Assembly: GCA_951804945.1 (NCBI GenBank)
Contig: OX638156.1
Span: 35,340,001-35,404,000, forward strand
Length of the DNA: 64,000 nucleotides
Source: Podarcis cretensis
Lineage: Eukaryota
Reading direction: 5' to 3'
Below the pieces are notes generated by a model that did not search any database, was not told where the DNA came from, and worked only from the letters and a program-made list of their open reading frames with translations. Position 1 is the stretch's first letter. Each line of letters opens with the position of its first letter. This document shows positions 15 through 31,000 of the stretch, in pieces. The translations under genes and the position numbers were made by a program.

Positions 15-256
15 CCTCACACGTGGCCGCTCAGCTGAGAGCGCGCAGGCGCAGCTAAGCCGCTTCGCGTTCCCCTTTCAACCCTCGCGTCCCCCAATCG
101 GCAGCAAGTACTCCCCTCGCTGTTCCGAGGCTATTGGGCGACAGGGACGCCATACAGGGACGGGACCGGGAGCGCGGGCCAATGGGAAGCCCGGCAGGGG
201 GCGGGCCCTCTCCGCACGCCTTCTCCGGGGTCAGGCGGCAAAGGAGGATCGCGGCG
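15..256 (+). promoter_or_regulatory. AK2 CpG-island promoter / 5' region
   Basis: CpG-rich; E-box CACGTG 20-25, NRF1-like GCGCAGGCGCA ~43-53, CCAAT/ATTGG boxes at 94-98, 133-137 and 179-183, GC box ~197-206; no TATA. Confidence 0.7.
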
Positions 257-8581
<8,325 letters not shown>

Positions 8582-15116: not shown

Positions 15117-15940
15117 ATGGGCTCAGAGAAGGACTCGGAGTCGCCGCGCTCTACCTCGATCCACGCGGCTGCCCCGCCGGCCAAATGCCCCAAGAGCGGC
15201 TCAGGACAAGCAGGAGGCGGCAGAGGCACCGGCGGCGGAGGAGGTGACGGCAACAGCGGCAGTAACAGCGGCACCAGCCGGGGCCGCCGCCGCCTCCTCA
15301 GCTTCCAAAGCGTCTTCTCGGCCGCCGCCTCGGCCGCCTCGTCCTCAGCCTCCGGGGCCGGAGTCCGCCGCCGCCGGAAGGCCAAGGCCAAGCCAGAGCC
15401 GCCTCAAGCCAAGCCCGCCCCGGTGGTGGAGGCGGTGGCGGCGGCGGCGGCGATCGCCAGCCCCACCGCAGCATCAACCCAGGCCACTCCGCCGCCGCCC
15501 TCATCGCCGCCGCCGCCACAGCCTCCTCCTGCTCCTTCGGCTGCGGTTACCGGGGAGGGCGATGCCGCCGCCGCCGCCGCCACCTCGTCTTCGTCGTCGT
15601 CTTGTGGTGCGGAGTGCGAGGAGGGCGGCGAGGAGTCCTCCCCGTCGGAGCTGGAGTGCCCGCTGTGCCTGGTGCGGCAGCCGGCGGGCAACGCGCCGCG
15701 CCTCCTCTCCTGCCCGCACCGCTCGTGCCGCTCGTGCCTCCGCCAGTACCTGCGCATCGAGATCACCGAGTCGCGCGTCAACATCAGCTGCCCCGAGTGC
15801 AGCGAGCGCCTCAACCCGGCCGACATCCGCCTCCTCCTGCGCGACTCGCCCCACCTCGTCGCCAAGTATGAGGAGTTCATGCTCCGCCGCTGCCTGGCCG
15901 CCGACCCGGACTGCAGGTGGTGCCCGGCCCCGGACTGCGG
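15117..15940 (+). CDS. RNF19B: RNF19B exon 1 (coding part)
   Basis: Low-complexity N-terminus plus RING1; donor CGG|GTGAGA. Confidence 0.95.
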
Positions 15941-15980
15941 GTGAGAGAGAGCAAAGGCAGGGGCAGGAGGAAGGACACGC

Positions 15981-16021
<41 letters not shown>

Positions 16022-19000
16022 TAATAATAATAAGTAAAAACAGCAGCTGCTACTTTGGTGGCCGTTATGGGAAGTAAATTGCTTTATCTGCATTAGCCTG
16101 CTGTGATCTTTACAACAACCCTGGAAAGGTTGGCCGGTTTGGATCTTGCCCCCCATGTTACAGATAGGGGTGGGTGAGGTCCAGACAGCACCACCTAGCG
16201 GGCTCTTGCCAGTGGGGGACATTAAACCTTAGAACAGCATGATTCCAAGCTGCTTAGTCCTGCACCAATTCAGAGCGAAAGCAAGCCAGTACTTCGATTG
16301 GGGCCAGCCATGATTGGCAGGGTGTGTACCAGGTTTCAAGGTTCACGGACGGGCATGCACTACTAGGGAGAGAACTCTTTTTAAAGGTCATGTCACTGAG
16401 CCCTAGCTGCAGTTTAAAGTTTAAAGGTGCAGGGGAGGTGCCTTTGCATTGACTAAATATTGTCTTTGTAGCCAAGCCAATGTTCTGTACCAGCTCAATA
16501 CATGGTGCATTAGAGTGAAATGAGCAAAAATGGTATGTCACTCTGCCATCAACAGTTTACAGTTTAAAAGTGGATAGTTTAGAGAGAAAATGGCAAAGTG
16601 ATGGAAATATAAGAAAAAGGGGTGTGAAGAGCATCCTCTGGCTTTTTTCTGTTGGGGATAAGGGCTTTGGGAATTAAGCCCAGAGGCTTTGTGGGAGAGG
16701 TGGTTTTTGCAGATTTTATATTCTTGTTTAGTTCACACACTGCTGCTTCATTTGGGAAATAGTGCATAATTGTGTCTATAGTTCATATCTCACCTGCCAT
16801 GAACAGTCATAGCAAGCCATTTAGCTTTAGCCCCTTATCTGCAATAAAGTTAACATCATTATTTTATATTTTTTCCAACTTGTAGGAGTGTTTGAAAAAC
16901 ACCTGAACACTAAGAACATTGTATGCAGTAATAAGTATTGTATTTTTAACTACTGTTCACTTATTTTATTTTATTAAGTTTCTATCCTGCCCTTCCTCTG
17001 AAAGGAGCCCAGACTGCTCCATGTTCCTATAGAAATTAAGTGTAGTACGGGGAATGTTGCTTCAACAATGGTGCCTCATCTGACTTTTTCTGTCCAGAGG
17101 GAGACAAGTAAGTGCCCTGTTCCCAAACTGCTCACACTGTCTCTTTCAATATCCATGGGGAAATGGTGGCAAACAGCAGAATTTTTTAAGACTAAAGCAT
17201 TGCTGATCAAGTGCATGCAGTGCACCAGCAGGACTATGTCCAGCAATGAAGTGTCAATTTGAATGCACTTAGCTTCTTCCAGTCATTCGCAGCCCTTATT
17301 AAAGGAGTTTCTCCAATCTCATTAAGGCAGCTACTTTTGCTGCCTAATGGTTATAATTTTGCAAAGGAATAGGTGTGAGTGAAAGTGAAAATGAAAACAA
17401 AACTTTCATTATCAGGTACTTTGGAAGTGCCAAAGATGTGCTAGAACCTGCGTTAAGTATTTAAAAACCAGCAAATCAGCATATACATTCCTCATAGAAT
17501 TGTAGTCTAAACCTTTAGAGGACCCAGGGAGCTGCATCTCTTGAGTAAACACTTTCTTTACAGGGCTTGGGTAATACTGAACACGGTCACAGTGTAGGAA
17601 GGGAAATAGGATGTATGTATAAGATCAGTTATCTTGGTGCAGACTGAAAACACGTGGAAGACACAAACTTTACAAGATCAGTATATCTTGTAAAGTTTGA
17701 GGTGTTTATTAAGGACTGTCTTTCCCTCTGTAAATGGAGGGCTACACATAAGTAATGGAGGGAAGCACATGTATGTGTAAACAAAACTAACTGCATTTAC
17801 AAGGATTTGTGCCTCTAGAAATTTATTAAAGGGCAGACTATAATGAAACAGTTCACTCTATGCTGTGGCTATCAAATCCTCAAGAGGAATACTTATATGA
17901 AATGGAAATGCTATCTCAAACACTTTGTGTTGGCATGTAAAGATAAGCTGGGATCTCTGGGTTATAGTGGTTTAGCATGAACGAGTAGTACCTGCTGCTT
18001 GATTGATCCCACATTTCTCCTCCCCAGTACAAGGAGCATAAACAAACCTAAGAAACCATGAGTGGTGGTGGTTAGTAATAAACTGCCCTTCTTCAAAAGA
18101 CCTTAACAAATCTTAAGCTGTGGTTTATTGTTACCTTGTAGACTATGACTTGTTGGTCTCAGTAATAGAGGAGGGGTGGCCCATCAAGAGGGAAGATAAT
18201 GTGTCAGACAGCTGTGGAAAGTCCCAGTTTATGGTGATCTAGATACTCCCAAATCATTCTGTGGCTTGAATCCTTGGCAAGGACTGGCTGGCACTGCTGA
18301 TGGTAGTTAATTAACTAGGTCCTGCAGTGAGGTGTGAATTGTACTTTGTGTCATTCCTGTCTACTTAGTTGCAGGTAGACTTTGCTCAGAATCGTTTTGT
18401 CAGTAAAATTTATTTTCCTGAGAATCTTCTTTAAGTATTAATGAACATTTATAGATGTGGGGTTGATGTTACAGATGAGGAGGAGTGGGTGATCCTTGGA
18501 AGTAGGGGCAGGGGGAGTTTGATTTGAAATTTTCTGATCACAAGTGTTGCATGTATTTCAGGTTTGTGGTGGGATTTTTTTTACTGAAAAGTTCCTGTTT
18601 CTAAAATGCCAGGGAATTGTGGGTCTTTCCCAGCCCCTCTGTATGCTGAGAAGTTCAGCAGCCTTAAGCTATCCTTTCACAATAGTGGAGGAAACTGTAA
18701 ACAATGACTTTCAGTAAGAACAGAAACTTGCACATTCTGGTAAGAAAGTATTTTATGTATGGGGATGCAGGTGGTGAAATGTTGAATCATTGTGATTCAA
18801 CATCCAGTTGGGTAACTGGGAAATGGCCTAGCCTTTGGCAGTTACCATAGTCAGAATGAGATTTGAGTAAGTCTTGTTTTACTTTCACTTCTGTTTTCTT
18901 TTAAATCAGCCTCCCAATGTTTCTCTTAAGACAGCATGGAAAGTACAAGCAATGATTCTTTAAGTTGTCCTTTAGAACATTCATCTTAAAACATGGGGTA

Positions 19001-22000
19001 AGGGAAGTTGTAACGTACTGGGCACTGCAGAATATTCTTGGAATTGTTGTAATTGCTTCTGATTCTGTTGATTTCTGTCATGCATATGTTGTTGCTGGGC
19101 AGTCCCAAATTATGCTGTACTGCATAATTAGAGGAATTAGAGATCAAAGGAAGGTGGGCAAGCATACCACCCACATGGTAGCTCCACTAAATACTCTTGG
19201 GCAGTTTTTCTGCTTTGCTTAATTAGCAAGAATCTGGTTATCACTTAACTGTTTCCTCTATTCAACCGATGCAAAGTTTATCAGATTTGATAGGAAACAT
19301 AAAACAAGCTGATGGAACACTCTGCTCTTGGATAGATGCCCGCCAACTTGCTTTATTTGAGATAGTGCTACTTCTGTGGCAGGGTTCTGAAGGTTAGTGT
19401 GCTATTTAACACTGAAATGAAATATATCCTATCTGGTTGCCTTGTATTCTAAGCTAATAGTTTGTACATAGAGACCCTGAAGACTACCCAGAAACATTCT
19501 GAAAGAAGCTTCAGCACTGTATCCTTTGTAACAAACTTGAGACACTGGTAGGTTTCATGATGTTCACTGTTGGCATCTAGATTTTGTTTTGTTAAAAAAT
19601 ACACTGTTCTTAAATTTTCAGAAGTTCATTTAAAAATGAAATATCACCCCTGCCAAAAGTCTGGAAACAGGCAGGAGATAATGAACCAGACCTTTTCCAT
19701 ATTAAAGTGTTATGTTTTACATTTCTCTGTATATAATAACAATGTAAGAATGTAGCCCCCATTTGTAGTGCCTCATCACAATCCTGGATTTGCATGAAAT
19801 CAGGGTGGGGTAAGGGGCAAAGTTACAGGCAGGTTGCGCAGAAAGTTGCCATGGCGTGGTCGCAAAAAAAGAAGAAGAGAGACATTATGAGGGGGAAAGT
19901 GGTTTTAAACAATGGCAGAAGTTTGAGTAGAGTAGCAGGGGTGACACTGAGTGGGGCAAAGTGGTAGTTTAAAACAGGGTTTGAGTACACTGAGAAGGGA
20001 GTTTTGAAAGGCTTTGCTTTAGCTTTGTGCTGTTAGCTTCTGTGTTGTATGCATCTCTGCTTGTTCTCTTTCTTAAAACCGATTTGGTTTAAAACAAGCA
20101 AAAATCCTCAGTGGTCTTCCATTCTTGCTTTACTTAAACCTCTGTTGTTGTTTAAAATCACAACCACCACCACCCCAGGGTTACTCCACCACAGCTTTAT
20201 TCAAACTTTTACCAGTTTAAAACAACCTCTTTTCCTCTTTCAGTATTTTTTCCTTGTTGCTGAACTCAAACTTCTCTCTCTTCCATTCCTCAGAGAAATA
20301 AAGGATGCTGAGCCCTCAAATATCCCACAGTAGCTTCACAGAATGTATGTCACTCCTGATACCATGTGTTGTCTTCAACATGAAGTTCAGTGAAGATTCA
20401 GTGTAGTAATTTAGAAGAGTTAGTTTGTTAACAGTCAAACATCTATATATGTACAACATCCTTTAAAACTGAACAGCCCAACTGACAGTCTTGGTTTTAA
20501 GATTCTACTCATTTTTAAAGTTGCAGTAATGTATATCATCATGGTGTGTGTCCACAAAGGGGGCTGCAGAATAGGGGAGTTGAGAAAGCATGCAAATGGT
20601 GATCTGTGTGTAAGGGAGAGTTGAGAAAAGTGAGGATGAGGGTGGAATAAAAAAGGGGGTGATGGTAAAAATAGGAGTGTAAAAGGGGTTGCAAAAAAGA
20701 GGTAGTAAGAGGCATGGGAATGGGGTTGAGGACTAAAGCAGAGTCATGAAAGGGTCTGCAGAATAGGAGGGAATAGCTTCATAATTGAGTGGAAGGTGAA
20801 AAAGGTGCTTAGTTGCTCTGTGTTGGAAGAGGAAGGTACCCGAGATTACCATGCGGTTGGTTTGTATGTAAGGGTGTTGCACAAAAAAGAGGACGAGGCA
20901 CAGACAAGGGGGTGAAGATGAAATGAGTTCAAAGTGAGTCTATAGAATAGAGAGAACTGGCATCAGGAATGGGGTTTGAGAGGTGAAAAGTAAGCTTTGG
21001 AATTGCATGGGGTGGGAAGGGGAAGCTCTAGGGCACGGGTCAGCAAACCTTTTCAGCTGTGGGCTGGTCCACTGTCCCTCAGACCTTGGGGGCTGGACTA
21101 TATTGCGGGGGGGGGGGGGAGAACAAATTCCTGTGCCCCACAAATAACCCAGAGATGCATTTTAAATAAAAGGACACATTCTACTCATGTAAAAACACGC
21201 TGATTCCCTGACCATCTGCAGGCTGGATTTAGAAGGCAATTGGGCTGGGTCCAGCCTCCAGGCCTTAGTTTGCCTACCCATGCCCTAACTGTTGCTTTTC
21301 CTTCCCCCTTTGCAATTGTTGAATCTTCATAGAATTTTTGGGAGGCAGGGAGAGATGGAGAAAGAGCACAGATCTACCCATGGGTAGGCAAACTAAGGCC
21401 TGGGGGCCAGATCCAGCCCAATCGCCTTCTAAATTCAGCCCATGGACAGTCCGGGAATCAGCGTGTTTTTACATGAGTGGAATGTGTAATTTTTATTTAA
21501 AATGCATCTCTGGGTTATTTGTGGGGCATAGAAATTTGTTAACCCCCCCAGTATAGTCTGGCCCCCCACAAGGTCTGAGGGACAGTGGACCATCCCCCTG
21601 CTGAAAAAGTTTGCTGACCCCTGCTCTAGGGGGTTAATGTGGGGGGCTGTTAGGTGGGTTGGTGAGCAGCACAAGCAGGCAGTGCAGCTGCTAGTGCTAG
21701 TAATACCGTTAGAATACAGTATCAAAAAAATTGGTTGTACAAAATCCAGCTGCAGTTTTGCATATCACTTGCTTGAACAGCAGCTATCAATTTTTCACCT
21801 ATCAGGTGGGGGATTTTATGTGTAAAAAACATTTGGAAGAGACAGTGGGATAGGGCATGTGCTCTGATGAATAGCTGTCACATTTACACAAAAGTCAATT
21901 GTACATGGTGCCAAGATAGCATATGTGCTGCCTGAAGTAGTACCTAAGAGCTGTCAGTAATCTGTGTGGGTTCAGAACGATGCATATGATTTCTTTCTCC

Positions 22001-25000
22001 CTGCTTCTCACATGTTTTGTAGAAAATCTTTGTCACATAGGTTTCATAGTTCAGTTTCTCTGTGAGACTGCAATAAAAGCATGTTCTGAGAAAAATAGCA
22101 TGCAAAATCCTCATGGTTTCTGCATCCCACCCATGCTTCAAGCATCTTCATAAATTGGCAAGCTTAGCTATTCTGCCTAGGGAGGTAAACTGCAGACATA
22201 ACACAAGGGTGTGTTTCCATGGTAATGTTGGTCTTCTAGTGCACAGTTAGATCTGCATACAAATCTGGAACTACCTTTTTCATTGTAGTCAGCTCGTGCT
22301 GCTGTCTGACATTCGTTGCTTTGTATTTTTCCCTGAGGTTGAGGGGGAAATTTCAGGGCATTAAAATAAATCCATTGTGTTGGCAGAATTACCAGTAAAT
22401 GAGTAGAGCAGAGCATGAATAGGGTGGGGCATGTATTTAGCTCTCATTCAGTCAGTGGAAGTGAAAGGTGGTAGGCAGATTGGTACTTGAGGTCAAGGTA
22501 GAAGCAGGATTCTATATCGATTTTTATTGACTTGACTTGTATTGTATTATATATTATATTCATTATATTATATTATACTATACTATATTAAATTTGTATA
22601 CATACAGCTTTTTATTTATAAATTTGTGCACCTCAAAGCAGTTCAAAATATGCAAATAAATAAAATAAATAAATACAATTAACTGTTAAAATACTAGATA
22701 GTCACATCTTTTCAGCAGCTAGAACCCAAAAATATCTTAAGATTGGCTGTTGGAAAATGTCATGATAAACAGAATGGTCTTTAACTATCTGTGAAATTAT
22801 CCTATCACCACTGCTCTCCTGATCTCCATGGGGAGCTTATTCCACAAAATGGGTGCCATAGTAGTTGTCCCTCCAGCCAACTAAGCAGTGCAGTCAGAAG
22901 TGCCCCACCCAAATAACACAGTGTCATTGATGGACTATAAAGAAAAGGGAGTCTTGAATATACTGTAATCTGTTCCCAAGCTGTTTAGGGCTTCAGAGGT
23001 CAAAAACAACACTTAAAACTTTGTTCAGCAGCTAATGAACTGCCATTGCAGATCCCTCTTTATTGATGTTACATGTGTGCAGTAGGAAGCTTCAGCAACC
23101 TAGGTGCAGCTTCTAGACCAACCTCAAGGTTAGCCCACATAGAATGTGTTACAGTAACCCAATTGTAAGGTTACCAGCATGTTGATCACAGTAGCTGGGT
23201 ATCCCTGTAATCATACTTAGCAGACCTGCCAGGCATTTCCTGCCACTGAGGTCACTTGGGCCTCCAGTGACAAAGATGGATTAAAGAGTACCCCCAAACT
23301 GTGCACTTGTCCTTCCAAAAGGAGTCCAACCCCATCTAGAACTGGCAGATTTCCCTATTTCCAGACTCAAAAACACCCACCCACAATGTACTTCATTAAG
23401 GATTCTGCCATGAGTCCTGTGGAGGTCTTGTGGAGCGGTTGGTCCAATCCAGATGAAAAATAAGAACTTGGGGAGTTGAAGTTTGGAAATATAGAGAAGG
23501 GTTCCAGTGGGTTGTGGAAGATGAAATTGGGATCCCACGGAATTGAATCATAGAATTACAGAGTTGTAAGGGACCCTGAGGGTCATCTAGTCCAACCCCC
23601 TGTAATGCAGGAATCTCAACTAAAGGAGGGGGGTAGTGACTGCACAGCTGGATTCAGGGGAGGGATCGAGTGGGTTGACAGAGATATGTTGTTCTTCTGT
23701 GGTAACAGCTGCCTCTAGTCAGACCTCTGCTATTGTGGAACCACCTCTGATGTTGCCTCCTGTTAGTGATGAGCTGCTGCCTTTTGGGGAGGCAACAGAG
23801 TAGGTTGGATGCAGAGCCAACTCCACTTCCGTCTTCAAGGGCATGGAGGTACTGGCACCTGCATGAATAAACCGCAGTTCCAACCCACTCAGGGGAATGC
23901 TAATTTGCTTGCTCACTCCAAAGACTCCAGCTCCTTACCACACACACTAAAAGCACCCCCCTCCACAACAGGCTCATGGGGCATGCCGTTTGTTAGTTCA
24001 GTGTGTTCACTTGTGCCTAGCCATGCATCTAAACCTTTCTTGTACCGTCTATACCATGTAACCAGTGACTTGCTTATATAAAAATCTGCTTTACACTTTA
24101 AAAACTTTGGCAGAAACAAGAGGCTAGCAGCAAATGCCAGGATAGATTCAAATTCAGTTTCTGAAGGTCATGCATGACACTCACGACTCAAATGTAGTAG
24201 AGAAATAGAACTTGCCTCCAAACTTCAAATGACCACTCCTATGGCTATGTTTAGATGTTAAATAGCATTGGCAATAGAATAGTACCCTGCAGTACCCATA
24301 GCATAACTGCAAGGAAGCTGTGGAACCAACCCCATAGATAGGACCAGAACCACTGCAATATCGTGCCCTCAACTTGTATCTTACAAAGCTGATCGGGCGG
24401 ATATTATGACCTGAAGCCAGTCTGGAATGGCTCAAGATAATCAGTATCCTCCAATAAGCCTGTGTTAGGACTTCCACCATTCTTGATTTGGCTAAAAAGG
24501 GAGAACCTGTGTTCAGGAGGTAGTTAATCATAAACCTTGGTTTGCAGGTAGGGCTTATTGAGGAGTGGTCACACAACACATCTTTAAGGTTGTCTGGCAC
24601 TACCCCATTGCATAATGACACATTCACCAATCCCTGGACTTTCCTTGCCAGCCCATTCCTGCTAGCTTGAATTAGCCTTGATGGGCAAGGATATGGTAGG
24701 ACAAACTGTTACAAATATCTTTTCTACATCCTCAGTCCTCTTTAGCTGAAACTGATCCTACAGGACTAAACCAGATGATGAGTTGGAAACCTCACCAATA
24801 TCCTTTCTAACTTTGGTGTTCAGATCACTGTGGAGACGAATGTTTTTACCTTTACTTGGTGCCTAGCAAAATTATTACAGCAGGCCTCAGAGGGTCCCAG
24901 CCTACTTTTTGCTGGAGCAGGTATAAGTAAAGCACATGCCACTTTGAAAAGATCTGCTGGACATACTTGAGGACACAATGGTGGCAGCCAGTTAAGCCTT

Positions 25001-28000
25001 TGGTGCCTTCACCACCACACAATAGGCACAATTATGTTCAGTCACTCTCACATCACATCTTAGCCCAAATGTGCTTTACCTATCATCTGTTCTATGTCAT
25101 TGTCTGAAATTCTGCAGAGAACCACAGTGTTACTCAGGCTCCACAGTGTCAAACAGAGGGCTTGAGGGCAATTTTGCTGATAGCCTGCTTCATCTCACTG
25201 TTCCACATCAAGACAGGAAACATCCCCAGAGCATTCAAGAATCAGTTGGATTCCATAAGTCTTCAATGGCAGACCATTCTGATAGACCCTTTACGCTTGC
25301 AGGGAGGGATTTTTGTCATGACACCAAATCTCGCAAAACAACATCAAGGCTTGCGTTACGTGAAATACATTTGACAAACACACAAGACGTAACCGGCTAT
25401 GCATTCACATAAACAATACTCCTATATATTCTTATCACAATATCAAATGTTTATCTTGCACATAAACAGCACACAAAGTGCAATAATATAGATGGAAGTC
25501 CCAATAAATCAGTTCATTCATAAAGACCAATGTCTTCTAGTTTCTGTTCCACATATGTTCATAAAGTCCAAATTGGAGCGTACTACAGTTCCACAGTGTT
25601 GACAAGGATTTCCGGAATAATGCCTTGTTTCACTCTCATGGGCTTCATCCGTTGTACATATTCTAAGTAATATAAATGAATATAATGTCGTAATTCAACA
25701 TATTTTAACAAATTAAAATTATATAAACAATTGTGCTATAGAAGTACATACCATATATGAAGTATCAAGATAATAGAATTTCTAACTTAGTGGTTTCTGC
25801 AGTGAACAACAACTGTTACAATGTAAGATTATATAGACAGGCGCAGCATTGATTTTAGTTACAGGTGACAGAAATCTGCAGCTGTGAGGTTTTCTTAAAG
25901 TTACCCCTTTAAAACAACAAATGTAAAACAAACTTTATCCATAAAGAGGTGTTATATATACAAGCATTATTAATGACTTAGAGAAAGCAACTATAATCAA
26001 TTTCAGTATTCAGACCTGAGGGATGCAAAGAATCAAGTAGAAAAATAAATCTAGTTTCTTTCTGCATAAGAAATGACACCAAATCTCATCAAGAAATGAT
26101 CTAACAGCAGCGCTATAACAATACCTTCACATCTCCAGACAATCTCTCTCACACCCTGTGGCAAAGACTGAAATCAAAGTTATATCCCATCTTGTATGTC
26201 AGGCCGTGCAAAAATATGCTGAGACAGCTTCATGGATGCAGTGGAGGCTGGTCCAGTAGAGGCAGATTAGGCATGAACTTTGAATTCTCTAGAACAGTCC
26301 TGGGGTTCACTAACACCACAGTCAAGGACACCTCCTTCAGCTGGGTCAGAGAAGCTGTTTGTTTAGCAGCAGGGTGGGTAGAACATCTGATAGCAACCCC
26401 AATCTATCTGGCCCAACAACAGGTGCAGGTCATCTAAGCCTGCTCCAATGGGGAGAAGTTCTCTGGTGAATGCAGTGATAGTTTATGAACCACAGTGACT
26501 CTCCTCCTGCCTAGATCCACTAAAACCAAATGGTTATATGAAGACTGAGACTGCTCAGTAGGTGCTGAAAACTGATGGAGTGAGGGGAGATACCCAGAAA
26601 ACAGGGTGGGTGTAGGCATGTGAATTGGAATGCAGTGTATTGGAAAAGGGCCTGGCTTGCTGACTGGAACCTTAAATAAAAGCACTTCAGTGTTTTGTTG
26701 CAGGTCCCACTTGCAGATTCTGTTCTCAATGTAGTTTTGGCTGTGGAAATGCGGGTAGTTAAGAGGCAAAACATGAATGGATTAAAGGAGTCTTGAGAAT
26801 TAATTATTGGCTTCTGTACCTTCAAGACTGAAAGGTTTGTCATTAACACTATGTCATTGAACTTGATGTTATCAGCTGTCCTCTTGCTCTCCTTGTGAAA
26901 GATGATTCTTGTAGGACAGCAGTTGGCTTCCTGATAAAGATGGGGTGGAATGGCTAGAGGGGGCTTAATTGCCCAGTGGGGACTCAGTTTAGAAGAGCTG
27001 GAATAGTCAAAGCCTCTTTTCCCACCTGCTAGGAGATTATCAAACTGACAAAAAGGAAGTATAGATTCCCCAGCAGCTGCATACAAATTGTACAGCGCAG
27101 GGCCTCCCCTCAGAAGCAGCCCTGTCCTCCATGTAAGAACTATGGCTTTCTGGAATCACATCCACTAAAAGAAATGAATGTTACATTTAGAATAACTTGT
27201 GCAAGTTAAGCACATTGCAAAAAAACCCTAGACATGTTTTATTCTGGTTGCATGTTCTGCAGAATTTGATTGAGCTGGGGAAGTTGAAATTACCTGAATT
27301 TTGACAGTGCAGAATGAAGGGAAGCATGCTCTGTAGTCATGCATATTTCTGTATCTCCTGATGAAACATAATTGTTTTTGTTGAGGACTTGCATAAATTG
27401 AGGGTAGTCCATTTGATAACAGGTGGTGCCAGTTAATATATTTAAATGTGCCTCTCTGCTGGTACTGGGCATTCTTGTATACTAGAAATATAAAGCGGTC
27501 CTACAGATGTACATGGACCTCCTTTTCTGTCTTTTGAATCTGCATATTGGCACGTAGGTATGTGATGGTCACCTTTTCTAATTGTGCTACACTTGGGTAA
27601 AATGGTTTCTCCAGCTCCCAGAGGTTGTGAATCATGTGGACTATTCCAGATTTCTCATGCTGCAAGATCTGAGAAATAGTCATGCAACCTGAATTATTTG
27701 GGAATTAATAGAAGAGTAACAAGGGTGATCCTTCTGACCCTTACAAAATATGCAAACTACAGTGTTAGACAACCTCCTTGTGTCATTTTTTTGTGTATGG
27801 TGGGTAGCTTCTGTGACAAGGAATTGTTTTTTACCTCTCTTCTGACTTCTTTTTTGTGCTCAGGTAGAAATTGTTTGCCAATTGGTGCTTCTGTTTCCAA
27901 AGTACTAACTATAAGCCCATTAAGGGAGATGGGGAGAAAACTAACTTTATTATGACAGGCTTCTCATGGTTAGAGCTCTTAGAATGTTACACAAGCAAGT

Positions 28001-31000
28001 CAGTAAATGTCTTGTTCTCACCAAGGGAGAGAACAATATGTTAGATTGTAGATGTACATCGAATTACCTTAATTTTTGCTGAGATATAGGTAGTAAATCT
28101 GAGAAAGTTAGGTTAATTGTGACTGAGTAGGTTTCTACAGAGACAGTTGTCTGTGTGGCTTTACTTCACATAGTCCAGTTTTGTCAATACATGTCCCAAA
28201 CAAAACACTGTCCTGCCATTTACTTTTTTGCTTAGTTATGCTGTTATTGCCTATGGATGTGCAAGCTGCCCCAAACTGACGTGTGAGAGAGAAGGCTGCC
28301 AGACTGAATTTTGCTATCACTGCAAGCAGATATGGCACCCAAACCAAACTTGCGACATGGCCCGCCAACAAAGAGCACAAACTCTGCGGGTACGGACAAA
28401 GCACACCTCAGGCCTCAGTTATGGACAAGAATCTGGACCAGGTATGTACCAGTGAGCTACTTGCCAGTTATTGCAGTTGTGTGTGAAGATCTCGGAAAGA
28501 GATTGACTTAAGTAAACGTGACTTTTACCTTTGTATGGTAGCTAAATTTCAGCAATGTAAAAGGCAAAGGTTTATACACATACACATACACTCCTCTATC
28601 TAGGCAAGCAGGAAGCATCATCACAGTTCAAGGACACATTCTGGACAGGCAAAACTACTTGAGGAGAATAAGGGATGTGGCCTGAGAAGAATCTCAAGGT
28701 TGGATAGAGAGGCCTTGAGGGATGCTTTTAGCACCGAGGTCTAAGATTCCACACCTCTGTTTTAAAGTACCCACTTGCTTCAAGTGAGTTATAAAACTTT
28801 TACCTCAGACATAACATAACTATTGAACATAACTAGTTCAAATCAAATGTCATTGTTCAAATTGCATGCTGGCAACAGCAGTGTGTTTTGGTGGAGTTGG
28901 GAACATAGAAAGCTGCTTTCTGCTAGGTCAAACTGTTTCTCCATCTAGCCCAGTGTTGTTTAATCTGACTGGCAGTGGCTCTCCAAGGTCTCAGGCAGAG
29001 GTCTTTCCCCATCACTTGATATAACTAGAGATGCCGGGGACTGAATTTGGGACCTCCTGAATTTAAAGGACTTGCAGTAATAATGAGCTATGATCCTATG
29101 CAGCCTTGTTAAAAATATCAGGGATGAATTACTTGTCAGGCCCAGGATACTCTTACCCTTTTAAACTAAGAATGAGTTTCTCAGGCAATAACCTTACCAA
29201 GTGACTTTCAGACATTCATTCTCAGTCTGCGCCCCTGCCTATATGACAGGATTGTGGTAAGGATAAAATGGGGGTGGAAGGGAGGAGCATATTCTCTCTT
29301 GAACTCCTTGAAGGAAAGGTGAGATTTAAATTTGGTAAATAAGTGAGTCAGGCCATGGTCCTAAGCACAGTCAGTTGAATTAGAAACAATGAGGTTTTTG
29401 AATCTTGACCTGCCATGTGATTTAAACACTTTTTTTCATTCAAAGGAGGATGGGCTGGAAGAGTAAGACTGTGGTGGTTCTTTCACCTTCTTTCTTACAA
29501 TGGAAGATCTCAAAGATTTTCAATTCCTTCTTGGGATTTATTTAGGTGCACAAAATTTGACTGGGTTCTCCTTTTCAATTCCATAGCAGATGACATCAAG
29601 CCATGTCCACGTTGCAGTGCCTACATCATCAAGATGAATGATGGCAGCTGTAATCACATGACTTGTGCTGTATGTGGCTGTGAATTCTGCTGGCTTTGTA
29701 TGAAGGAAATCTCTGATTTGCATTACCTCAGGTAAGTTGGAGGGTAAAATGCCCTCAAGCTGCTCTACCTTGCTAGAGCTATGTTGCTGTGGTCCAAAAC
29801 CTTTACTACTCAAAAGATACTGTGCTGTGGGAGTATCAAAAAAGATAAAATATTGATTTGTGTTCTTATACTTAGAAATGTAGACTGATGGACTTAAAAT
29901 TGATTGGAGATGGCCTTAGAACCCTTCCCAATTTCATGGGCAGCAGCACTTGCTTCTCTAAGAGCGTTCTGTCATTTTTGCTCCTTGGCATTATGTTAAA
30001 ACACACCTGAATGCTCCAGGCCAGCAAACTGCTAAAATATTTGGCTTTTATAGAGGTGGGCACACTTGCTGATGATAAATTAAGGGCATTTGATTAGCAG
30101 CCCCTGTCTGCTATTTAGCCTCTTAATTCCTGTGGAAGCAGTAAGGGTGCACTTAGTTTTTCACACATGATTTCTCCATCTTGGCTTTATTTCTGTTAAA
30201 CATATCATGACATGGTGTAATATGTCATGTATTGTTGTTTATCTGAGGTTGTTTTTACCTAATTTTAAGACCTGTTAAGGAACAAATGATTGCTATTATG
30301 TCCTGATATGTAAAGCCACAGAATTCAAAGGAGGTGCACTTTCTTTTACCCATGACTATACATGGATCAGCTGCAGGGGTGGGGGGCTGTGTACTGTGTA
30401 CATACATGTGTGTGCGTATTATGTGTCTGTGAGAAAGTGTGCCCTCCCTCCCCCCCCCCACTGCTGGCATGTGGCCCTTGGAGGGTTGGCAGCGAGGGAA
30501 TGCATGCCTCAGAGCAGCAATCGAAACTCCCATTGTTCTAGGCACGTTTTGCGACAGGGAATTTCATTAGCGAGAGCAGTTTCTGAGCCTAAGATTTCAG
30601 ATTAAAATTGCACAGTGGAAGGAAAGGAGGACTTTTTTCTGCCTCCCCATTTCCAGCCACTCTCTGAAGACTGGAAAAGAAACCCTCTTAAGAATATTAG
30701 AGGGGTGGGCAGGGGAAGAATGGCTTTGTTTTTTGCAGTCTTCAGATGAGGACTAGACCATGTGAAAAATGAACATAAGACTTTTAGCTGCCGTTCATTC
30801 ATTTTCATTTTTGTATTCTTGTTATTAAAAAAGCGCACCTAGATATTCTGTTGTTGTGTGCATAACCTAGATTTAAGGTGCCATTTAGCTCCTAGCTTTC
30901 ATATCTCAGTTTCTAACGCTGCCGCAGAGTCGAAACAGTTCCCCATCTGTGCTGTAGACACACCTTTAGCTACTTGGACAGGAAGAGGAGGGGAGAGGTT

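Follow-up and report, generated by a model that had tools for sequence, protein, structure and literature searches.

Results

The locus and its host gene

The window, by which we mean the whole stretch of 64,000 nucleotides of Podarcis cretensis analysed here, contains a gene of the RING-IBR (RNF19-type) class on the plus strand. Pfam detected RING/IBR sequence in exon 1, which ends at 15940, and an IBR in a later exon; exon 2 starts near 28245. Directly upstream and on the same strand are exons at 59–5000, which we take to belong to an adenylate kinase 2 (AK2)-like gene. Judging from synteny with this AK2-like gene at the start of the window, the host gene is presumably RNF19B. The initial annotation placed the motif studied here antisense to RNF19B; the antisense placement was borne out, in intron 1, and the gene name is our assumption. 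Elsewhere in the window we observed an approximately 600-bp MITE-like element (21026–21629) with long inverted arms that are 85–93% complementary, and an end related to it at 47950–48337, flanking a stretch of N.

Intron 1 of the host gene holds a 740-bp Neptune-like Penelope element that carries the motif and is truncated at its 5′ end, at 26072 (Table 1). The number of matches given for it comes from a search of the same genome with a 1-kb query. Our reference frame, L160, encodes 749 amino acids with reverse transcriptase (RT) and GIY-YIG domains; RVT_1 scored above the Pfam cut-off and GIY-YIG fell 0.5 bit below it (E 2e-4). The close copies L004, L005 and L006 have the RT thumb and a Cys linker upstream. 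In L004 and L006 the frame runs from RT through endonuclease (EN) in order, so the family has the RT followed by a C-terminal GIY-YIG domain that defines EN+ Penelope-like elements (PLEs). Between RT and EN, L005 and L004 aligned to L160 have the CxxC-xx-C motif of a Cys-rich linker. The remaining PLE features are also present, namely a pLTR with intron and hammerhead, a target-site duplication (TSD) and inverted 5′ parts. Together, the linker and the host range, which we take to favour Neptune rather than Nematis, suggest that the element is Neptune-like. Such a linker is a mark of Neptune and Nematis PLEs, and Penelope/Poseidon are described without it (PMC3846280). From the element ends, the ORF remnant and the linker, we place the hammerhead in the 3′ pLTR of a 5′-truncated, Neptune-like element, on its sense strand. 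Contigs that span the junctions have the insertion at the same site in two related organisms, A and B (9/394 and 5/375 bases differ), so it predates their split.

Table 1. Positions of the inserted element, its parts and the host intron in the window
Feature	Position	Strand	Basis
Intron 1 of the RING-IBR (RNF19-type) gene; element antisense to it	15941..28244	+	Exons by Pfam; 3′ end approximate
TSD, 3′ copy, 15 bp	25318..25332	-	Identical 15-mer flanks both element ends
Penelope element, ORF end and 3′ pLTR	25333..26072	-	64 matches in own genome; dispersed copies share 3′ end position
C17, predicted scissile bond 25601/25600	25601..25601	-	Inferred from hammerhead geometry; UC here in 99/111 places
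GAAA box and helix III, 15-nt loop holding 8-nt palindrome	25602..25631	-	Predicted pairing
Extra nucleotide after A9 and helix II (helix II 25643-25632)	25632..25644	-	C.A mismatch; C11.1 to U at 25632
Catalytic box C3-A9, reads CGGAUGA, U4 to G at 25650	25645..25651	-	C3 = 25651
11-nt exon start, would-be 5′ strand of helix I, unpaired in subfamily	25652..25662	-	A.A at 2.1/1.1
pLTR intron GT...AG, 89 nt, retained in window copy	25663..25751	-	Copies exist without exactly this segment
Last 30 codons and stop of PLE ORF (GIY-YIG C-terminus)	25978..26070	-	47% identity to L160 residues 720-749, E 1e-4
TSD, 5′ copy, 15 bp	26073..26087	-	Identical 15-mer flanks both element ends

The hammerhead motif in the window copy

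On the minus strand the letters are exactly those quoted in the initial annotation, and each of its structural observations was found again: a helix III that pairs perfectly up to a GUC triplet with C at 25601, an 8-nt palindrome, and three deviations, which are the CGGAUGA box, a mismatch in helix II and no helix I. The GAAA box is at 25631–25628 and helix III (25627–25603) is formed by CAAGG at 25627–25623 and the CCUUG of CCUUG-UC at 25607–25601, with the palindrome at 25617–25610. Helix III has 5 pairs plus A15.1-U16.1 and, together with H17, agrees with a type-I hammerhead. The rest departs from that class. In the core C3 U4 G5 A6 N7 G8 A9 / G12 A13 A14, position 4 is G and not U. Helix II contains a C.A mismatch and is closed by G.U where the family has G10.1-C11.1, which leaves only 2 contiguous pairs, and helix I is absent, with A.A at 2.1/1.1.

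The pattern from core to helix III gave 211 matches in the genome and 0 for a reversed control, so the motif is not a product of chance. The isolated segment folded no better than shuffles (z 0.26, 114/200 as good), and the structure of lowest energy was one other than the hammerhead; canonical copies of the larger subfamily M likewise do not fold as hammerheads on their own, which makes this weak evidence. Rfam, which the initial annotation had proposed as a check, gave no hammerhead match in the window, yet it was equally blank for 8/8 loci with canonical cores, so its result on the window copy is uninformative. The predicted dimer gain for helix III was –12.1 kcal/mol, compared with –5.5 ± 2.9 for loop shuffles (6/200 as good), and helix III and its palindromic loop are thus predicted to favour a dimer. 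The initial annotation was right to see here a type-I hammerhead of a PLE, with a loop III whose palindrome suits dimer formation. Non-LTR retrozymes are described as tandem units, each with a type-I hammerhead (10.64898/2026.07.22.740005). The window has a single copy with an ORF remnant and a TSD, and on these grounds we rejected a retrozyme reading. Raw RNA data of organism A (4 runs, 6–13% sampled) yielded only 26 reads, 24 of them only partly on the stretch, with no joints and no pile-up of ends, a sample too small to bear on expression, splicing or cleavage. A search of sequencing runs recorded no RNA run with the sequence, which weighs neither way.

Three features go beyond the initial annotation. 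Two are taken up below, namely that the G at position 4 is common to one other insertion and that the deviations of helices II and I belong to the subfamily; the third is an intron that ends just upstream of the core. The intron ends 11 nt before C3 in three subfamilies (M, S and W, the last being that of the window), and its acceptor abuts C3 in two related families, Y and Z. Among the M places (n = 87) 38 are spliced, 24 have the acceptor and 25 are unscorable; 4/17 W places and 10/23 Y places are spliced, and the other 13/23 Y places retain the intron. Since the intron is retained in the window copy and the sequence runs on across the cut site, this copy probably derives from an uncut, unspliced template.

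Position 4 across the genome

We searched the genome for the pattern with the letter at position 4 left free (reversed controls 0). Of the 180 matches, 162 have U at position 4, 10 have G, 6 have A and 2 have C. The fetched loci represent 111 distinct places, 87 in M, 7 in S and 17 in W, and the canonical CUGAUGA is found in 84 of them. By raw count G occurs in 10/17 W places and in none of the 87 M and 7 S places. However, 9/10 G matches lie within 2.6 Mb of contig C4 and have an inversion breakpoint and much of their flanks in common, so these nine are one insertion multiplied by segmental duplication. Counted as independent insertions (n = 8), W has U in 5, G in 2 and C in 1. The raw nearest-hit consensus CGGAUGA was therefore rejected as an artefact of segmental duplication, and we note as a warning that such a consensus can be set by segmental duplicates. 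The C4 region at 3.5–6.2 Mb (G000:C4, a subset of L009–L030) is segmentally amplified, with many nested repeats. L029 and L030 each contain an intronless frame of 202–203 amino acids, which we take to be a CHMP6/VPS20 retrocopy.

The initial annotation left two readings side by side, a decayed copy or, if CGGAUGA were the consensus of the family, a non-canonical variant. The alignment of genomic copies that it called for gives a canonical consensus core, with helix III compensated between families. These data uphold the first reading and contradict the second, both in the family at large and in the nearest subfamily.

The window copy and the ancestor of the C4 copies share U4G and one other weak site, and each has changes of its own; the simplest reading would be a common source copy with U4G. 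Among the C4 copies with G, A9G is found in 5, C3U in 2 and an insertion in helix III in 1, and one C4 duplicate, L022, reads U at position 4. Within the G-bearing W copies, only that of the window has C11.1 changed to U, a CpG-type change. A piece from organism B matches 25584–25667 with one difference and has the G, and an inverted copy in organism A does not contradict it. Because U4G is common to two insertions and to the organism B piece, it is old and was carried by a mobile source. U4G is not conserved as a unit; the G lineage decays further (A9G, C3U, C11.1U, the insertion) without compensation.

Helices and conservation in subfamilies M, S and W

Helix II has a perfect 4 bp in S and 3 pairs in M, and the C.A mismatch is the state of W. 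At 2.1/1.1, A.A was found in 15/15 W places scored and in 6/7 S places, compared with A-U in 76/78 M places. W and S lack the 13–15 nt directly after C17 that form the 3′ strand of helix I in M. Since M and other families have the pair, the loss of helix I in W and S is probably derived. The helix II mismatch and the absent helix I are traits of the subfamily and not private damage of the window copy.

Core boxes, helix III and palindrome are unaltered in the W and S majorities. Over all 111 places a GUC-type triplet is present in 99, and the palindrome is intact in 52 and has a CpG-type change in 39. Identity of W or S to M is 85–88% in the motif, 67–68% in the intron and 47–49% in the next 60 nt (2, 4 and 10 copies); between W and S it is 0.88 in the motif and 0.82 in the intron. 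The divergence of S from W copies is 13–15% and that of W copies from the window copy 5–10%. Three W loci (L003, L006, L008) have a common chimeric pLTR, in which an unspliced unit that ended inside the hammerhead, with an older 4-bp helix II, is joined to a spliced unit; this is likely to reflect a template jump in the source element.

Related families and junctions at the predicted cut site

Helix III shows a compensatory change between families, CAAGG/CCUUG versus CAGUG/CACUG, the latter with a CCGG-centred loop. In families Y (62 matches) and Z helix III is a 12-nt palindrome and helix I has 4–5 bp; other related families have only 0–2 contiguous helix I pairs. Family Y (L159–L163 and L169, for example L160:3835-6081 on the minus strand) is young and Neptune-like; its RT + GIY-YIG frames are long and open, L159 has a further, separate frame upstream, and the pLTR contains two introns. 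After splicing in this family, the end of the exon can take the place of the intron end in forming helix I (one bulge, by eye).

We surveyed copies without the core by searching from downstream of the cut, and placed the 5′ junctions that fell between C3 and about +5. Counts were made partly by eye and the test was chosen after some cases had been seen, and the p values below are to be read with this in mind. In Y, the junction lies no more than one or two bases from the cut in 4/9 loci (binomial p 0.008), or in 3/9 (p 0.05) when L248, which has a 5-nt microhomology, is omitted; five more junctions are spread across the next 35 nt. In Z, 3/10 events are at the cut (p 0.07), counting three loci with a common junction as one and dropping five with internal indels or later insertions. 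By contrast, there was no excess at the cut site in M, the larger family of the window copy (2/14, p 0.24), where the loci fetched were those 26, out of 86 places, that lay on C1–C9 and had no core match. Pooling gave p 0.002–0.009 for Y+Z and 8/33 (p 0.007) for Y+Z+M. C17 is the end of L189, and one base is missing at this point in L252 and L303.

Junctions and one-base losses that lean to the predicted cut were seen in Y at L248, L251, L254, L255, L189 and L252, and in Z at L284, L285, L302, L303, L308 and L314. L254 consists of three 40-bp tandem units, each beginning at the predicted cut site. Three unrelated Z junctions (L274, L275, L301) lie just after A9, at –29/–30 from the cut. The clustering in Y and Z is possibly a trace of cleavage in vivo, or of RT stalling at helix III. 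We treat the excess as a lead and not as a result on the window copy. No report of junctions at PLE cut sites was found in the main texts of the open-access papers and the few subscription papers that our search covered.

Discussion

The motif is best explained as the hammerhead of a truncated Penelope element of Neptune-like type, situated in its 3′ terminal repeat. The element lies antisense in a host intron, and the hammerhead is likely to be catalytically dead; we put the probability of this reading at roughly 0.85. Four defects, U4G, C11.1U, a mismatched helix II and an absent helix I, together with a strand that is wrong for host transcription, point to a dead ribozyme. The ancestral motif would have been a type-I hammerhead whose self-complementary helix III and loop pair two RNAs into a dimer that cuts after GUC. 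In the source lineage a deletion at the cut site would have removed helix I, and the mismatch in helix II would have followed. One source copy may then have gained U4G and seeded at least two insertions, those of the window and of contig C4, from uncut, unspliced RNA, after which the window copy would have lost C11.1. Host transcription would produce the opposite strand, so that as a rule the motif would not be made as RNA. Seeding by a damaged source fits with the observation that an Anolis PLE with a dead core can still insert in vitro (PMC11167929).

As a counterpoint to a dead ribozyme, the motif is better kept between subfamilies than the intron or the downstream sequence, although this conservation may predate the loss of helix I. 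Folding predictions may also understate activity, by analogy with a viroid in which U4C stays active enough and a lizard PLE ribozyme that needs the protein of its element. A rival idea is that the W/S lineage still works without helix I in cis, the helix being supplied by a partner RNA or by the protein of the element, and that only the copy with U4G and C11.1U is dead. The intact core boxes, helix III and palindrome of the W and S majorities and the perfect helix II of S would fit with this, as would the few helix I pairs of other related families and the divergences within W and S, which indicate that the lineage kept inserting after the deletion. However, changes along the lineage run in one direction (helix I lost, helix II mismatched, U4G) without compensation, the motif is only slightly more alike between W and S than the intron, and W and S together make up 24 of 111 sampled places next to 87 for M. 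We consider a working W/S hammerhead improbable.

It is far less probable still that selection in a sub-subfamily has made CGGAUGA a functional, non-canonical core. The raw W majority for G, its occurrence in two independent insertions and its presence in the organism B piece, uncontradicted by the inverted copy of organism A, speak for such a core, but that majority is a duplication artefact, G is absent from M and S, and the copies that have it gather more core changes, with one duplicate reading U. The least credible idea is that the host took over the insertion to regulate the RNF19-type gene, as an antisense or intronic element. Organisms A and B do have the element at this site, yet it has about a dozen private changes across its 740 bp, one of them within the motif, it lies antisense, and it shows no sign of conservation beyond neutral retention; we therefore rejected exaptation.

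Returning to the decayed hammerhead, a wider reading is that the lineage records a ribozyme dying stepwise in a PLE that still jumps, with helix I deleted exactly at the cut, helix II broken and U4 changed to G, and that in sister families, whose ribozymes are intact, template jumps have left scars at the scissile bond. Taken as one, these genomic traces would indicate that hammerheads of Neptune elements cleave in vivo and set the 5′ ends of the RNA, although the elements can spread without them. We offer this tentatively and are inclined to doubt it as a whole.

There is nothing unusual in the finding as such: PLE ribozymes of this kind are known, and the window copy is one among about 200 that are decaying. 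Hammerheads occur in the pLTRs of metazoan PLEs, including Neptune elements and reptiles (Cervera and De la Pena, 2014; PMC4209133). The window copy is probably a decayed member of this group and not a new variant, since it lacks three defining features of an active type-I hammerhead. Like the hammerheads of that paper, it and its family have a type-I form in the pLTR, an extra nucleotide after A9, G10.1-C11.1 in the family, a palindromic helix III and loop, and dispersed single copies from truncated elements. By contrast, helix III is long here (5 bp and a 15–16 nt loop), nearer to the fungal and protist form than to the minimal one, helix II has 2–4 bp and not 7–8, helix I is weak in M and missing from W and S, and U4G is present in the window copy. 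The conservation of helix III and the predicted dimer gain support the dimer model of PMC4209133 for the ancestral ribozyme.

Most core changes lower activity drastically, and the tolerated natural case named in the main text of Perreault et al. (2011; PMC3088659) is U4C, which keeps enough activity in a viroid, and not U4G, which occurs 0 times there. Neither a natural U4G hammerhead nor a rate for U4G was found in our literature search, which covered main texts that were open-access for the most part. Natural core variants resemble the window copy in having a single change in the C3-A9 box; unlike it, they have intact helices, where the window copy lacks helix I, and tested activity (PMC3088659). 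Stem II often has two pairs (PMC3088659) and the mismatch is the W state, so this deviation in helix II does not point to anything new. The natural M, S and W copies offer a ready-made set for working out which of its parts the ribozyme requires.

As in Penelope of Drosophila virilis, where the 5′-UTR intron ends in helix I, the pLTR has a spliceosomal intron whose end falls at the 5′ strand of helix I or directly ahead of it, and copies that retain the intron transpose (PMC4209133; PMC8557442). Compared with that element, intron-less copies are as common here as retaining ones (38 vs 24 of 87 in M, 10 vs 13 of 23 in Y), and the acceptor abuts C3 in Y and Z and lies 11 nt upstream in M/S/W.

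The Poseidon element PAc of Anolis carolinensis belongs to another clade (Penelope/Poseidon, without the Cys linker; PMC3846280). Its hammerhead cuts only with the protein of the element, and its dead-core mutants insert normally in vitro (Frangieh et al., 2024; PMC11167929). No reads ended at the PAc cut site (PMC11167929), whereas the Y and Z junctions lean to it here. The junction lead bears both on these absent in vivo cut-site ends and on the role of hammerheads in EN+ PLEs, which has been called unclear (PMC8557442, preprint). If the excess in Y and Z holds, genomic copies would be a cheap in vivo read-out of cleavage. The two systems have in common that each is a lizard PLE in which uncut RNA appears to be the inserted substrate, and the damaged source proposed here is consistent with a dead core that permits insertion in vitro (PMC11167929).
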